This document shows positions 52,674 to 56,889 of a DNA stretch of 64,000 nucleotides, piece by piece. Positions within the stretch are counted from its first letter, which is position 1; every line of letters begins with the position of its first letter. The translations under genes were made by a program, and so were the position numbers. Source of the DNA: Vicinamibacterales bacterium (GTDB taxonomy: Bacteria; Acidobacteriota; Vicinamibacteria; Vicinamibacterales; UBA2999). The stretch is taken from assembly GCA_035293405.1 (NCBI GenBank), contig DATDOE010000113.1, positions 28,263-92,262 on the forward strand, written 5' to 3'. Below the pieces are notes generated by a model, which was given only the letters and a program-made list of their open reading frames with translations, was not told the origin of the DNA and did not search any database.

Positions 52674-53618
52674 TCAGGCGATGGGCGTGAGCGGGGGCTC
52701 GCCCGACAGTACGGCCACGACGTTCTGCACCGCGAGTTGAATCATCGTTGTTCGCGTCTCGATCGCGGAGCTGCCGAGATGCGGCGAGAGCACGACGTTC
52801 TCCAGCGAGAGCAAACCCTTCTGAATCTCCGGCTCACGTTCGTACACGTCGAGCGCGGCGCCGGCGAGGATGCGGTTCTCGAGCGCCCAGACGAGGGCGG
52901 CCTCGTCGACGATTGGACCGCGGGCGGCGCTGATCAAATACGCGCTCCGCTTCATCCTCATGAGCGTCGTCTGGTTGATGAGATGTTTCGTCTCGGGTGT
53001 CAGCGGACAGTGGAGTGACACGACGTCCGATGTCGACAGCAGCCGATCGAGCGGCATGAACTCGCCGGCGACACCCGATTGCGCGCTGCGCCCGGTATAG
53101 GCCAGCCGCATCCCGAAGGCTGGCGCCCGAGCCGCGACGGCCTTGCCGATCCGCCCAAGCCCGACGATCCCGAGCTGCTTGCCGCGGAGATCGCTCCCCA
53201 GCATGAAGTCGAGGGTAAATCCCTTCCACTGACCTCGGCGCACGAGGCGATCGCCCTCGACGATGCGACGCGTGATGCCCAGGATCAGCGCCCACGTGAG
53301 GTCGGCCGTCGACTCTGTCAACACGTCCGGCGTGTTGGTGACGACGACTCCGCGCTCGCGAGCCGCGGGAACGTCGATGTTGTTGTAGCCAACGGCGATC
53401 GTGGAGATCACCCTGAGATCGGTCCCGGCGTCGAGGACGGCACGATCAATCGCGTCGGTGACCACGGACACGAGCCCCTGTTTTCCCACGATGCGTTTCA
53501 ACAGCTCGTCATGCGGGAGATCGCCGCGATCGTAGAGCTCGACGTCGCAGGCAGCCTCGAGGCGAGTGAGCGCGGACGAAGGGATTCGGCGGGTGACCAG
53601 GACTAGGGGTTTAGACAC
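52674..53618 (-). CDS. D-isomer-specific 2-hydroxyacid dehydrogenase (glyoxylate/hydroxypyruvate reductase-like)
   Basis: GTG start. NAD fold 'LGIVGLGRIGKAVA', with catalytic-region signatures 'ISAARG' and 'SPHLGS'. Confidence 0.88.
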   Translation of the reverse strand: MSKPLVLVTRRIPSSALTRLEAACDVELYDRGDLPHDELLKRIVGKQGLVSVVTDAIDRAVLDAGTDLRVISTIAVGYNNIDVPAARERGVVVTNTPDVLTESTADLTWALILGITRRIVEGDRLVRRGQWKGFTLDFMLGSDLRGKQLGIVGLGRIGKAVAARAPAFGMRLAYTGRSAQSGVAGEFMPLDRLLSTSDVVSLHCPLTPETKHLINQTTLMRMKRSAYLISAARGPIVDEAALVWALENRILAGAALDVYEREPEIQKGLLSLENVVLSPHLGSSAIETRTTMIQLAVQNVVAVLSGEPPLTPIA

Positions 53619-53622
53619 ACCA

Positions 53623-53657
53623 ACTTTCTACTTTACACTTCGCACTTTGCACTTGTT
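53623..53657. repeat. five tandem heptamers (ACTTNNN), single arm
   Basis: actttct actttac acttcgc actttgc acttgtt. Fills the gap between the small Cys protein gene and the dehydrogenase gene. Confidence 0.85.
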
Positions 53658-53879
53658 CTAGTGTCCAAGCGATTTGCAGTATCCGCAGTGATTGCACGTC
53701 ACGGCGGGCTCGATGATGCACAGGCCCTCGCCCTCGGCGCCAGCGGGCACTGAGAACGTCGAGTGGCTCGCATGCATGCGCGCGGACGCGACGGGGGTCG
53801 TGGAGGGCTCGCTGAACCGCCCCGCGCCCTGCCGGGCGATGACATCTCGCACGAGCGCGCGCAGTTCCTGTTCCGTCAT
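53658..53879 (-). CDS. small BMC-associated protein: N-terminal amphipathic helix + C-terminal 4-Cys motif
   Basis: 73 aa. 'MTEQELRALVRDVIARQ' is followed by a linker and 'CIIEPAVTCNHCGYCKSLGH'. ATGA overlap with the upstream BMC-P gene. Confidence 0.55.
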   Translation of the reverse strand: MTEQELRALVRDVIARQGAGRFSEPSTTPVASARMHASHSTFSVPAGAEGEGLCIIEPAVTCNHCGYCKSLGH

Positions 53880-54148
53880 TCGACTGTGTCCACCTGATCG
53901 ACGATGCCGATGATGGCGGCATCCACCGGCGCCGCTTTCCGCCCGAGCGCCTCGCCGGCGGCGCGGCCTTCGATGACGACCAGCACCTTCTCGTCGATTC
54001 CGGCGCCGACGGAGTCAACTGCCAGCAGCACGGTGCCCCTCGGGGCGTCGTCCAGGCCGATCGGCTGGACGAGCAGCAGCTTCGCGCCTTCGAACTTGGC
54101 GTGCTTCTGTGTCGAGACGACGGTGCCGACAACGCGTGCGAGTTGCAT
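53876..54148 (-). CDS. BMC-P (EutN/CcmL pentamer) shell vertex protein, paralogue 3
   Basis: 'MQLARVVGTVVSTQKHAKFEGAKLLLVQP...AVDSVGAG...VDAAIIGIVD'. Confidence 0.9.
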   Translation of the reverse strand: MQLARVVGTVVSTQKHAKFEGAKLLLVQPIGLDDAPRGTVLLAVDSVGAGIDEKVLVVIEGRAAGEALGRKAAPVDAAIIGIVDQVDTVE

Positions 54149-54156
54149 GGTCCTCT

Positions 54157-54205
54157 GGGCCGCCTAAAGGCGGCCCCTACGTGACGACTGAAGGCGGCTC
54201 CTACG
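54157..54205. repeat. REP-like hairpin + half copy inside BMC operon
   Basis: GGGCCGCC-taaa-GGCGGCCC ctacg, then tgaaggcggctcctacg. Confidence 0.85.
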
Positions 54206-54467
54206 CGACATCGATCTCGTCGACGATGCCGACGATGCCGGCGTCGGTTGGCACTTCCGTCGGGTAGAACGGAAACGAGGCTTCCTTGCCGCGCACGAAA
54301 AACACCGTTTCACCCACACCCGCTCCAACCGCGTCGACGGCGACCAGCGTTCGGCCGACGGCGCGGCCGTCAGGCGCCAGCGGCTGCAGCACCATCAGCT
54401 TGAGGCCGTGCAGATTGTCGTCCTTGATGGTGACGACGACGTCGCCGATGACCCTGGCCAGTTGCAC
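54201..54467 (-). CDS. BMC-P (EutN/CcmL) shell vertex protein, paralogue 2
   Basis: The GTG at 54467 gives 'VQLARVIGDVVVTIKDDNLHGLKLMVLQP...AVDAVGAG...DAGIVGIVD'. Confidence 0.85.
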   Translation of the reverse strand: MQLARVIGDVVVTIKDDNLHGLKLMVLQPLAPDGRAVGRTLVAVDAVGAGVGETVFFVRGKEASFPFYPTEVPTDAGIVGIVDEIDVA

Positions 54468-54471
54468 GAGA

Positions 54472-54747
54472 TCAGTCGCCCGCGGCGACCTCCACGTGGT
54501 CGACGATCCCGACAATGGCGGCATCGACCGGACAATCTTTCAGACCCGACGCCATGCGCGCCGAGCTGCCACTCACAATCAACACGGTCTCGCCAACGCC
54601 GGCGTCGACGGTGTCGATGGCCACGAGATAGTTGCCTTCGGCCTTGCCGTGGGGATCCATGGGGCGGGCGACGAGCAGCTTGCTGCTGACCAGACGCGGG
54701 TCCTTCCGCGTAGCGACAACCGTCCCGACGATGCGGGCCAGGATCAT
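54472..54747 (-). CDS. BMC-P (EutN/CcmL) shell vertex protein, paralogue 1
   Basis: 'MILARIVGTVVATRKDPRLVSSKLLVARP...AIDTVDAG...VDAAIVGIVD'. Confidence 0.9.
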   Translation of the reverse strand: MILARIVGTVVATRKDPRLVSSKLLVARPMDPHGKAEGNYLVAIDTVDAGVGETVLIVSGSSARMASGLKDCPVDAAIVGIVDHVEVAAGD

Positions 54748-54762
54748 GCGGGGTACGACAGG

Positions 54763-55059
54763 TTATGCCTTTATGCCGGCGGTAGACTTGCCAATCGGGA
54801 GCGCGTCCTCGAGGTTGGCATGAGGCCGTGGGATGACGTGCACGGACACCAGCTCGCCCACGCGGCGAGCCGCCGCCGCGCCAGCATCAGTGGCGGCCTT
54901 GACCGCGGCCACGTCGCCACGGACGATCGCCGTCACGTACCCGGCGCCGATCTTCTCCCAGCCGACCAGCGTGACCTTCGCGGCTTTGACCATGGCGTCG
55001 GCCGCTTCGATCATCGCGACCAGGCCCTTGGTCTCCACCATTCCGAGCGCCTCTCCCAT
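54763..55059 (-). CDS. BMC-H (PduA/CcmK-type hexamer) shell protein
   Basis: '[54 protein letters not shown]'. Confidence 0.92.
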
Positions 55060-55157: not shown

Positions 55158-56018
55158 TCAATCCCGAAGGTTCTTCACGGCGTCGGTGATGAGCGCCGTG
55201 AGCTCGCCGTATGTTAGCCGAATTTCCCCGTCTCTGCTCGCCTGTCGCAGCGCACTCGAGACGTCGGGCACCAGCCGCGCGGTGCTCGACTCCGGCGCTT
55301 CGAGCACCTGGCACAGCACCTGATCGTCGGACGCCGGATCAGAGGGATCGGCACAGAGCGGCGCCGGCGACGCGATGCCGTACATGCCGCGAAGCCCCTG
55401 CAATCGCCCCACTTCCTCACGCGAAATCAGGTTCTCGCCTCCGAGCAGCCGGGCCACGAGACTGATTTTGGCGAAGTGCTCGATCGTTTCCATCTTGTAG
55501 TACGCCGACATGACCGTTCGGCAGCAGGTCACCGCGCCATGGTTGGCGAGCAGCAGACCGTCATGCGCCTTGATGTACTTGCGGACGGCGGCGGGCAGTT
55601 CGGCCGTGGACGGCGTGCCGTATTCCGCGATCGGGATGCTGCCGAGCGTGGTGACAACCTCGGCGAGCACGGCTCTCGTGAGCGGAATCCCGGCCACCGC
55701 GAACCCGGTGGCGTTCGGCGGATGCGCATGGACGACGGCGTTGACGTCCGGCCGATTGCTGTAGATCTCGAGGTGCATCGGCAGTTCGGAGGACGGATCC
55801 CGATCGCCCGACACCTTCTTCCCCTGGTAGTCCACGACGACCATCATGTCGGGCGTCATGAACCCCTTGGACACGCTCTTCGGCGTGGTCAGGATCCGCG
55901 TGTCGTCGAGCCGCGCGCTGATGTTGCCGTCATTGGAGGCGACGAACCCGCGCGCGTACATGCGCCGCCCGGCTTCGACGATCTCGGCACGCGTCTGCTC
56001 TTCGAGGCGTGTGCTCAT
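55158..56018 (-). CDS. class II (FucA/RhaD-type) aldolase with ~70-aa C-terminal extension
   Basis: The ATG at 56018 gives 'MSTRLEEQ'. 'SNDGNISAR' and 'VHAHPPNATGFA' (Zn His). The extension ends 'EIRLTYGELTALITDAVKNLRD'. Confidence 0.88.
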   Translation of the reverse strand: MSTRLEEQTRAEIVEAGRRMYARGFVASNDGNISARLDDTRILTTPKSVSKGFMTPDMMVVVDYQGKKVSGDRDPSSELPMHLEIYSNRPDVNAVVHAHPPNATGFAVAGIPLTRAVLAEVVTTLGSIPIAEYGTPSTAELPAAVRKYIKAHDGLLLANHGAVTCCRTVMSAYYKMETIEHFAKISLVARLLGGENLISREEVGRLQGLRGMYGIASPAPLCADPSDPASDDQVLCQVLEAPESSTARLVPDVSSALRQASRDGEIRLTYGELTALITDAVKNLRD

Positions 56019-56269
56019 CAACGGTTCTTTCGAAACTGATCCCGGCACCGATCCGAACAGAAATAGTGGGTAACGCTGCCGGCGCGCAGTCCGAGGGATT
56101 CGTGCGGGGACACCCAGGTGCCACAGACCGGATCGCGCACGAGCTTCACGGCCGCTTTCGACCGCTTGCTCGGCAGCCCGCCAAACGATTCGATGATCCC
56201 GTCAACGAGTCGCCAGAACGCCCATGCGACCATGAGCAGCAGCAGCGCAATGAGGACGAGCCGTGTCAC
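56018..56269 (-). CDS. membrane-anchored YHS/TRASH-domain protein
   Basis: GTG start overlapping the upstream stop (GTGA). TM 'LVLIALLLLMVAWAFW'. 'DPVCGTWVSPHE...HYFCSDRCRDQF'. Confidence 0.7.
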   Translation of the reverse strand: MTRLVLIALLLLMVAWAFWRLVDGIIESFGGLPSKRSKAAVKLVRDPVCGTWVSPHESLGLRAGSVTHYFCSDRCRDQFRKNR

Positions 56270-56889
56270 TGATTGCTCGTCGCGGCGCCACCACCGGCGT
56301 GAGCCGCCGCGATCCCTTCAAGCGCGCGTCGCGCCGCCTGGCCTTCGGGACTGTCAGGCGCGAGCGTCACCACCTTCTCCCACTCAGCCGCGGCGGCACG
56401 CAGGTCCTGCTTCCCGAAGGCGAGGACGATCCCTTTGTTCAGCAGCGTCTTCGTGTGATTCGGGCTGATCGCCAGCGAGTGCTCGAACTGCTTGAGCGCC
56501 TCGTCGGCTTTGTTGCTGTAGTACAGGCTCACCCCAAGATCGGTACTGGCGTCGGCGTTCTTCGGGTCGATCTGAACCGCCCGCGTGTACCACTGAATCG
56601 CGTCATCCCACTGCTCGGCATCGAAGTAGGTGTTGCCGAGCTGAATGACGGCGTCGAGGTTCTTCGGGTCGCTCTTGAGGATCGTCGTCAGCGCCTGCAC
56701 GCGGCCCTGGTCGAGCGCGGGCGCCTGTCGTGCGGTGTTACCGGCACCGGCGGCCTGTCCGTCGGTCGCAGCGGCCTGCGCAGCGGGTGCCGGGGCCTGG
56801 CGGCGAGCCTGCTGGGTGCCGATCACCCAGCCCAGGATCACGCCGAAACACATACCGGCGATGACGTACGCGATGGAGTCTGATTTCAT
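56266..56889 (-). CDS. membrane-anchored TPR-repeat protein
   Basis: N-terminal TM 'IAYVIAGMCFGVILGWVIG', an Ala/Gln-rich linker, and 3-4 TPR units ('LGNTYFDAEQWDDAIQWYTRAVQIDPKN'). Confidence 0.75.
   Translation of the reverse strand: MKSDSIAYVIAGMCFGVILGWVIGTQQARRQAPAPAAQAAATDGQAAGAGNTARQAPALDQGRVQALTTILKSDPKNLDAVIQLGNTYFDAEQWDDAIQWYTRAVQIDPKNADASTDLGVSLYYSNKADEALKQFEHSLAISPNHTKTLLNKGIVLAFGKQDLRAAAAEWEKVVTLAPDSPEGQAARRALEGIAAAHAGGGAATSNQ

Follow-up and report, generated by a model that had tools for sequence, protein, structure and literature searches.

The subject of this analysis is a gene for a protein of 73 amino acids on the minus strand (53658..53879) of a 64,000-nucleotide stretch of contig DATDOE010000113.1 from a Vicinamibacterales bacterium, here called the window. 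The gene lies within a bacterial microcompartment (BMC) operon and is a member of a catalogued, functionally uncharacterised family of small proteins with an encapsulation peptide (EP) and conserved cysteines, found in BMC loci of the ACI type. The protein is likely targeted to the BMC, and it probably binds a metal. We tentatively propose that it may serve as a small bivalent adaptor between cargo core and shell, in which the cysteine-rich C-terminus would be a metal-stabilised docking knot. Residue numbers are those of the 73-amino-acid protein.

The small gene and its family

The ACI type of BMC was defined by Sutter et al. 2021 (Nat Commun 12:3809, PMC8217296) and is exclusive to Acidobacteria. 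Its main locus encodes three proteins that lack known homologues, besides a hydroxyacid dehydrogenase and a PF00596 aldolase that bears an EP at its C-terminus; an unnamed protein of ~80 amino acids in these loci has an EP at the N-terminus and three C-terminal cysteines that are conserved (PMC8217296, Supplementary Data 2). Occasional PduS/PduT satellites occur in ACI genomes, and metal binding was suggested to be important for the ACI locus (PMC8217296). The window gene encodes a protein of the same size, with an N-terminal EP-type helix and C-terminal cysteines. Its surroundings share with the catalogued locus the EP-bearing aldolase, one BMC-H gene, the BMC-P triplet, the hydroxyacid dehydrogenase, and a satellite aldehyde dehydrogenase (AldDH) with its own BMC-H. 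There is no difference in kind from the catalogued protein, four cysteines being conserved in Vicinamibacterales rather than three. Because the central cysteine of the CxxCxxC motif, C65, can be serine, the three conserved cysteines of the catalogue correspond, by alignment, to C54, C62 and C68. The window gene shows all four features of the ACI small protein: the ACI locus, the short length with an N-terminal EP-type helix, the three cysteines and, judging by the 80 loci and 401 sampled genomes of the phylum, the Acidobacteria range. The earlier note on this DNA, made from the sequence alone, did not recognise the family, which is now identified as the ACI small EP-plus-cysteine protein (PMC8217296). 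The family has been known since 2021; added here are the invariant E57 and G72, the fixed C-terminus and the identity of the variable cysteine. A limited literature search found no later work on ACI BMCs.

Translation of the minus-strand open reading frame (ORF) gave the 73 residues MTEQELRALVRDVIARQGAGRFSEPSTTPVASARMHASHSTFSVPAGAEGEGLCIIEPAVTCNHCGYCKSLGH, as the earlier note had quoted them. The overlap with the last BMC-P gene that it described was also present: at 53876-53879 the sequence ATGA joins the ATG of the small gene to the TGA of the EutN/CcmL-family gene at 53876..54148. A search of 5.8 billion proteins returned 1,434 relatives at E<=0.01, none of which carries a name, and 217 cluster representatives at 50% identity were obtained from 1.84 billion proteins. 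Pfam and NCBIfam scans of the 73-amino-acid protein gave no match (E<=0.01). From the genome collection 80 loci with the small gene were recovered, mostly from Vicinamibacterales and nearly all labelled Acidobacteriota. Three of these (L028, L046 and L057) are labelled outside Acidobacteriota/Vicinamibacterales and yet have the same gene order; their labels probably reflect mis-binning. Among 69 orthologues, codon position 3 takes ~3 times more differences than position 1 or 2 in two conserved segments. By its pattern of substitution the ORF is a real gene under purifying selection, and that it is a real gene of the ACI family is nearly certain.

Conservation and architecture

The protein is divided into a helix, a linker and a C-terminal cysteine knot, located in the window as follows.

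53658..53879, minus strand: gene for the small EP and Cys-knot protein, 73 amino acids (ORF and translation, homologues, locus position, codon bias)
53823..53879, minus strand: encapsulation-peptide-type helix, residues 1-19, MTEQELRALVRDVIARQGA (AlphaFold2 (AF2) helix 3-19, residue pattern)
53775..53822, minus strand: variable Pro/Ala/Ser-rich linker, residues 20-35 (length and sequence vary widely; AF2 predicted local distance difference test (pLDDT) <50 at 22-29)
53763..53774, minus strand: H-A-S-H motif, residues 36-39, its H-x-S kept phylum-wide as 'HPS' (alignment; 'HPSxxxF' in other classes)
53661..53720, minus strand: Cys knot, residues 54-73, CIIEPAVTCNHCGYCKSLGH, running to the C-terminus (conservation, AF2)
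53658-53660, minus strand: stop codon of the 73-amino-acid gene (ORF listing)

The cysteines are spaced C54-x7-C62-x2-C65-x2-C68, after which come four residues and a His at the C-terminus. The first spacing had been given earlier as x8; seven residues, IIEPAVT, separate C54 from C62. To measure conservation, 344 distinct sequences of the family were aligned, starting at the C-terminus. The cysteines are conserved at 98% (C54 and C62) and 99% (C65 and C68). I56 (94%), E57 (97%), P58 (97%) and V60 (95%) are also conserved, as are H64 (93%), G66 (95%), S70 (94%), G72 (98%) and H73 (96%). In a 65-sequence alignment spanning the phylum, C54, E57, C62, C68 and G72 are invariant, and H36, S38, P58, H64 and C65 are at least 90% conserved. 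C65 is the sole variable cysteine and is Ser in L088, L089, L097-L099 and L119. The C-terminus always lies five residues past the last Cys and ends in G-[H/F/Y], giving a knot consensus of C-x-[IF]-E-P-x3-C-x-H-[C/S]-G-x-C-x-S-x-G-[H/F]-COOH. The earlier note had asked for a check of conservation and synteny; across the 80 loci and 344 sequences the ORF, its position in the locus and its cysteines were all conserved, and those of the note's counter-observations that could be examined were not seen.

Examples of the diverged homologues from other classes are …KLCSIEKNKPCDHCGMCKTLGF, …ACTFEPSKPCDHCSMCNSRGF, …CVMEPDKPCVQSGMCRTLGH and …ACCGSGRCKTLGF. In other classes the protein terminates in Phe, and Q, N or G may take the place of H64. 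The extra histidines of the Vicinamibacterales form are, by the alignment, not universal ligands. The flanks of the knot are plastic in these classes, with a second amphipathic helix just before the knot or an extra coiled helix.

Two longer or shorter forms of the protein were also observed. The homologues in family f31 (L097-L099) have ~180 amino acids, with a conserved domain of ~90 amino acids between the N-terminal helix and the knot that reads …LPQLSRLAYLQAGDPLVDRVL…GRPVYLDRPAVE…YPPRVRE.F.RWF…; the knot of these proteins contains ACSGSGRC or ACCGSGRC. Pfam scans of the long f31 form and of an f56 form gave no match. Genus g92 of family f40 (L102 and L108-L110) has forms of 69-70 amino acids without the N-terminal EP-type helix. 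Only three elements remain in these forms: 'HSS…F', IAEAIADSIFG as an amphipathic helix, and the knot. The internal helix may be their targeting element.

The encapsulation-peptide-type helix

An EP-like helix, a linker and a cysteine motif had been read from the sequence in the earlier note. This layout stood, in that AF2 predicted a helix at residues 3-19, the first ten residues having a pLDDT of ~93, with a disordered linker after it, and the residue pattern was conserved; the hydrophobic moment gave it no support, as described below. The hydrophobic residues L6/L9/V10/V13/I14 follow an i,i+3,i+4,i+7,i+8 pattern, and R7 and R11 are invariant. The helix segment ELRALVRDVI resembles the C-terminal EP of the aldolase in the same operon, ELTALITDAV, with the common pattern 'EL.AL[VI].D.[VI]'.

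The N-termini of PduP and PduD are reportedly EPs of metabolosome cargo (Fan et al. 2010; Kinney et al. 2012; Aussignargues et al. 2015). In the Salmonella PduP EP, which we take to be MNTSELETLIRTILSEQL, the hydrophobic positions coincide with L6, L9, V10, V13 and I14. In common with these EPs, the helix of the small protein is terminal, has ~17 residues and leads into a flexible linker that is poorly conserved; the 'cargo' of the small protein, however, is a knot of ~38 residues and not an enzyme.

The cysteine knot and its putative metal

AF2 models were made from a 48-sequence Vicinamibacterales alignment and from the 65-sequence phylum-wide alignment. The pLDDT of the knot rose from 56-61 with the former to 84-85 at residues 51-70 with the latter. 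In the phylum-wide model a beta-bridge between residues 53 and 61 sets C54 next to C62, and a short helix (67-70) starts from around C68. With moderate confidence, the modelled fold is as expected for a small knot closed by one metal centre.

In a PDB profile search (E<=10), the knot region matched only the structural-zinc lobe of medium-chain dehydrogenase/reductase (MDR) enzymes of the sorbitol dehydrogenase type (5vm2, 'DRVNIEPGVPCGHCRYC', and 1e3j). The local match spans 15 residues, 'IEPGVPCGHCRYC(K)' against 'IEPAVTCNHCGYCK', and the likeness is that in both a beta-strand whose end is E-P precedes three cysteines at x2/x2 spacing, the third of which has an aromatic residue ahead of it. 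The small protein differs from the MDR enzymes in ending five residues after its last Cys, in having no homology outside the 15 residues and in having no ADH_N domain. The MDR lobe is an analogy and not a sign of family membership. It does show that CxxCxxC together with one distal Cys is able to bind a single structural Zn.

A zinc ribbon or rubredoxin two-knuckle site was considered as well and was rejected: there is only one CxxCG[YF] knuckle (C62-C65), and the other ligands are single cysteines at -8 and +3.

An encapsulated Fe-S mini-protein was the rival that drew on the same cysteines, with a [4Fe-4S] cluster in proteins that have four Cys and a [3Fe-4S] cluster where Cys65 is Ser, serving as a lumenal electron carrier or redox centre. 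C-x2-C-G-x-C is a ferredoxin register with a remote fourth Cys, and of the four cysteines the middle one of CxxCxxC alone varies. The same central position varies between 3Fe and 4Fe ferredoxins, as in D. gigas FdII and P. furiosus Fd. A 16-residue maquette with C-x3-C-x2-C-x2-C binds a 4Fe-4S cluster, and Fe-S elements are common in BMCs (PduS, PduT and the PduK tail). With ferredoxins and these BMC elements the small protein shares C-x2-C-G-x-C, the remote fourth Cys, the variable central Cys and the BMC context. The occasional PduS/PduT satellites of ACI genomes and the metal binding suggested for the locus (PMC8217296) also fit this rival. On the other side, the small protein matched no ferredoxin in the PDB profile search (E<=10) and no Fer4 model in Pfam or NCBIfam (E<=0.01). 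Compared with a 4Fe-4S ferredoxin (CxxCxxCxxxCP), it has the CxxCxxC and lacks the downstream CP motif of the fourth Cys. Its domain of ~38 amino acids is below any natural ferredoxin in size, the cluster would be exposed, and cultured relatives are aerobic. It is also far smaller than PduS, the PduT pore-cluster protein or PduK with its Cys tail, and forms part of neither a shell protein nor a flavoprotein.

The genome itself (G000) contains no BMC-T, no RnfC_N/PduS-type gene and no PduL phosphotransacylase (PF06130), and all of its BMC-H are single-domain. An Fe-S protein would have neither a PduT-type BMC-T, an RnfC_N/PduS protein nor another lumenal redox user there, and the 'redox relay or cofactor recycling' suggested in the earlier note likewise has no visible partner in this genome. 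Finally, the small gene was lost in some lineages while the enzyme set remained unchanged. We consider the Fe-S protein an unlikely, if still substantial, alternative.

Alternatively, the Cys/His tail could be a lumenal metal buffer or metallochaperone that stores Zn2+ or Fe2+ or passes it to the metal-dependent class II aldolase, maybe together with the TRASH/YHS protein. The Vicinamibacterales form offers up to eight potential ligands in 38 residues (four Cys, H36, H39, H64 and H73); the operon itself encodes a class II aldolase, a TRASH-like protein with C-x22-C-x3-C is translationally coupled upstream, and metal binding was remarked on as possibly important for the locus (PMC8217296). However, H39, H64 and H73 are not conserved phylum-wide, and a rigid, invariant knot with a fixed end looks structural rather than exchangeable. 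The TRASH and TPR genes may be mere conserved neighbours, and the aldolase is retained in lineages that lack the small gene. A buffering role is improbable on these grounds.

The cysteines might instead form reversible disulfides that tune EP-mediated condensation of the cargo core. Redox-sensitive Cys pairs are established in carboxysome scaffolds, and such a switch has been proposed for the SSUL modules of CcmM in beta-carboxysomes. In the AF2 model a hairpin with the 53/61 bridge has C54 at one end and C62 at the other. Nevertheless, C-x7-C-x2-C-x2-C with a conserved Gly and flanking His/Glu/Ser is typical of metal sites, and none of the computed evidence supported a thiol/disulfide switch, which we regard as decidedly improbable.

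Distribution and loss of the small gene

A broad profile of the family (A3) was run over 401 sampled Acidobacteriota genomes, comprising 208 with BMC-P and 193 without. Matches were found in 90 of the 208 BMC-P-bearing genomes and in 0 of the 193 others. In genomes for which both coordinates were listed, the small-gene matches lay <1 kb downstream of BMC-P genes. A profile built from Vicinamibacterales matched in 30 of the 37 genomes of the order and gave weak matches in other classes, and in the regions that were fetched from those classes the diverged homologues also directly follow the third BMC-P gene.

This association bears on whether the product has anything to do with the BMC. A RiPP-like (ribosomally synthesised and post-translationally modified peptide) precursor of the SCIFF type, Cys-rich, with leader and core, and merely situated in the operon, would likewise be small, with conservation in an N-terminal helix and, at a high level, in a Cys-rich C-terminus. 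No radical S-adenosylmethionine (rSAM) enzyme or other maturase is encoded in or near the operon, where the small gene is surrounded by shell genes, the aldolase and dehydrogenase genes and HxlR, and the only rSAM gene of the window is queE, ~6 kb away. The strict co-occurrence with BMC-P genes and the translational coupling to one of them also speak against a non-BMC peptide, an idea that we find scarcely credible.

In seven genomes of the window's order that have the BMC-P triplet, no match to the small gene was found genome-wide. Four loci without it were fetched: L091-L094, from G073, G110, G258 and G367 (families f4 and f11 in the tool's numbering). Three of the four retain the whole operon including the dehydrogenase; L091 is also without an adjacent dehydrogenase. 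In these loci, 50-120 nt after BMC-P3 comes the dehydrogenase, or in one case an unrelated gene, and the remaining operon genes are kept. Because some lineages dropped the small gene but kept the rest of the operon, comparison of the loci marks the small protein as accessory and not as a core part of the system.

The same loci decided the fate of another explanation, in which the knot binds the EP-less 2-hydroxyacid dehydrogenase and the helix carries it into the shell as an EP in trans. The dehydrogenase has neither an EP nor a terminal extension, its gene lies 39 nt downstream of the small gene, and the two are adjacent in most Vicinamibacterales loci. However, lineages without the small gene keep the dehydrogenase, which has gained no EP in their loci. 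In family f31 the dehydrogenase is on the opposite strand, and L076-L078 and L083 have the small gene and no adjacent dehydrogenase. At L100 (family f40) the small gene is the last of the operon, and no dehydrogenase gene adjoins it. The comparative loci (those without the small gene, f31 and L100) rule this out as the principal explanation, and a dehydrogenase adaptor of any kind is very unlikely.

The identity of BMC-P3 to the window copy averaged 59% in the four loci that lack the small gene, versus 75% in small-gene-bearing loci of similar aldolase divergence. Relative to what the aldolase, P1 and P2 predict, BMC-P3 in these loci is more diverged (z scores -0.2 to -6.3), a weak signal from four phylogenetically clustered loci. 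With n=4 and such clustering, the divergence gives a faint hint that the small protein and BMC-P3 may be functionally linked.

A proposed docking adaptor between cargo core and shell

In the adaptor that we propose, the helix would deliver the small protein either to the inner shell face or into the EP-mediated cargo core. Folded around one Cys-ligated metal centre formed by C54, C62 and C68 plus C65, the knot would act as a second docking end. The small protein could then bridge or cross-link cargo core and shell, possibly at the co-made pentamer. CcmN of the beta-carboxysome serves as a working analogy only: it too is small and non-enzymatic, has an EP at one end and a second module at the other, and is made together with shell genes. 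CcmN is unrelated to the small protein in sequence and fold, and its partner is CcmM.

Besides the likeness to the MDR lobe and the lack of a ferredoxin or Fer4 match, three observations favour a structural role. G000 has no BMC-T/PduT, RnfC_N/PduS or PduL gene with which a redox centre might work. The knot stays constant amid the extra amphipathic or coiled helices of relatives in other classes. At the f40 locus L100, the small gene closes an aldolase-shell operon without a dehydrogenase beside it. As to the metal, we slightly prefer a structural site of the Zn type to an Fe-S cubane. The resemblance to the MDR lobe, the tiny size, the lack of a genomic redox partner, the association with shell genes and not with enzyme genes, and the fixed C-terminus all tip the balance a little in this direction. 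That cultured Vicinamibacterales are aerobes was counted on the same side.

Several points weigh against the proposal. The Eisenberg hydrophobic moment of the EP helix was 0.31, compared with a mean of 0.33 for shuffled sequences, and was not above the shuffles; the EP call rests on the residue pattern, position, linker, AF2 helix and catalogue annotation and not on the hydrophobic moment. The MDR match was not significant (whole-sequence E 0.007-0.05, domain E ~0.15), and its ligand order is reversed, the distal Cys standing 7 residues downstream in the MDR enzymes and 7 upstream in the small protein. Foldseek found no match in the PDB for either AF2 model. C-x2-C-G-x-C with a variable central Cys is also a hallmark of 4Fe/3Fe ferredoxins; the metal is not visible in the sequence, by which Zn and an Fe-S cubane are inseparable. 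Loss of the small gene from some lineages indicates dispensability and is silent on mechanism.

A further extension of the docking idea comes from the MIC3 loci of Planctomycetes, in which the AldDH has a C-terminal four-Cys domain of ~40 amino acids at the end of a long flexible linker (PMC8217296, Supplementary Data 2). These loci contain a triplet of BMC-P genes and 'no detectable encapsulation peptides' (PMC8217296). In the text on ACI, the AldDH proteins of ACI and MIC3 are placed together; in the entry on MIC3, EUT3 is instead given as closest to the MIC3 AldDH. The HO/MIC3 aldolases are named as most similar to the ACI aldolase (PMC8217296). The four-Cys domain of the MIC3 AldDH and the knot of the small protein are alike in size, cysteines and linker, as compared by description only. 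A search for long proteins with the knot motif, using an AldDH plus knot query, gave 17 word candidates and none at E<=10, in a setting where short-motif matches are not reportable. If the MIC3 four-Cys domain is homologous, the knot would count as an independent docking module, used in tethered form. It is conceivable, though improbable, that the knot is a second kind of 'encapsulation tag', a metal-stabilised shell-docking domain that binds a triplet BMC-P pentamer and is common to ACI, where it is tethered to an EP, and to MIC3, where it is tethered to AldDH and there are no EPs.

Operon and genome surroundings

The operon of the window, read on the minus strand, contains the following genes around the small gene.

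56266..56889, minus strand: TPR protein, 207 amino acids, with an N-terminal hydrophobic segment; its stop overlaps the start of the YHS gene (TPR families)
56018..56269, minus strand: membrane-anchored YHS/TRASH-like protein, 83 amino acids, C-x22-C-x3-C; its stop overlaps the start of the aldolase gene (weak PF04945 match, below cut-off)
55158..56018, minus strand: class II aldolase, extended at the C-terminus, where it finishes with an EP, …GELTALITDAVKNLRD (PF00596, E 6.4e-51; translation)
54763..55059, minus strand: BMC-H hexamer shell protein (PF00936, E 2.8e-30)
54472..54747, minus strand: BMC-P1 (PF03319, E 6.8e-32)
54201..54524, minus strand: BMC-P2; start codon uncertain, Pfam match from residue 21 (PF03319, E 3e-26)
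53876..54148, minus strand: BMC-P3, an EutN/CcmL pentamer; its stop overlaps the start of the small gene (PF03319, E 2.8e-29)
52674..53618, minus strand: D-2-hydroxyacid dehydrogenase, glyoxylate-reductase-like (PF02826 and PF00389; NF009714 E 1.2e-99, below the family cut-off)

Stop and start codons overlap at the TPR/YHS, YHS/aldolase and BMC-P3/small-gene junctions. In almost all of the 80 loci the usual order is GlmM, PdxJ, TPR, YHS, aldolase, BMC-H, three BMC-P, small gene and dehydrogenase, the dehydrogenase adjoining the small gene in most of those from Vicinamibacterales. The stretch from aldolase through BMC-H and three BMC-P to the small gene was also found in other Acidobacteriota classes. 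The start of the small gene overlaps the stop of BMC-P3 in 51 of 64 loci, 42 of which have ATGA; going by these overlaps, translation of the small gene is usually coupled to that of the third pentamer gene.

The intergenic gaps on either side of the small gene are filled with short tandem repeats. In the window, 53619-53657 holds units like ACTTNNN, and the gap between BMC-P3 and the small gene holds (TTCGTAAA)n in L037 and (GACT)n in L047.

In nearly all 80 loci the TPR and YHS/TRASH-like genes (56018-56889 in the window) precede the aldolase gene, and other classes (L088, L089 and L097-L099) likewise have a TPR homologue upstream. The TPR and the YHS/TRASH-like protein each have a hydrophobic segment at the N-terminus and may be membrane-anchored parts of the ACI system and not bystanders. 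At L074:8700-11300 the TPR, YHS, BMC-H, small and dehydrogenase genes are present with neither aldolase nor BMC-P genes between them, and this locus is a pared-down or rearranged ACI locus.

Two further single-domain BMC-H genes lie elsewhere in the genome. One is part of the satellite locus, beside the gene for a 588-amino-acid AldDH (L085:8606-10693, G000:C122). The C-terminal part of this AldDH consists of an EP, SAQTLATRIDTFLASRG, a linker and a tail domain of ~50 amino acids, 'FICEDDVRAALRAGRKLLVGERTIITPAARDLG…', which was found in 50 of 61 genomes of the order and which no Pfam model matched in a Pfam scan. The tail was considered as a relative of the knot and rejected, as it has no Cys motif, is present in five sampled genomes without the small gene and is missing in a few with it. 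The third BMC-H gene stands alone, directly after the gene for a 389-amino-acid DinB_2-domain protein (L084:7098-8606, G000:C133), with no other BMC gene near.

Meaning for the ACI microcompartment

BMC-P triplets are present in 208 of the 401 sampled genomes of the phylum, the small protein occurs in at least 90 of those, and ACI BMCs are found in a large share of soil Acidobacteria. Without a PduL or RnfC_N/PduS gene, the route of CoA recycling in the G000 metabolosome is not evident. Were a docking knot that binds a BMC-P pentamer shared between ACI and MIC3, the conserved BMC-P triplet would gain a functional explanation for the first time. Among the products of the shell operon, the small protein is the sole constant one that is neither a shell protein nor an enzyme. 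Its putative metal, Zn or Fe-S, and its binding partner offer a cheap and direct experimental entry to the assembly or the redox handling of this organelle.

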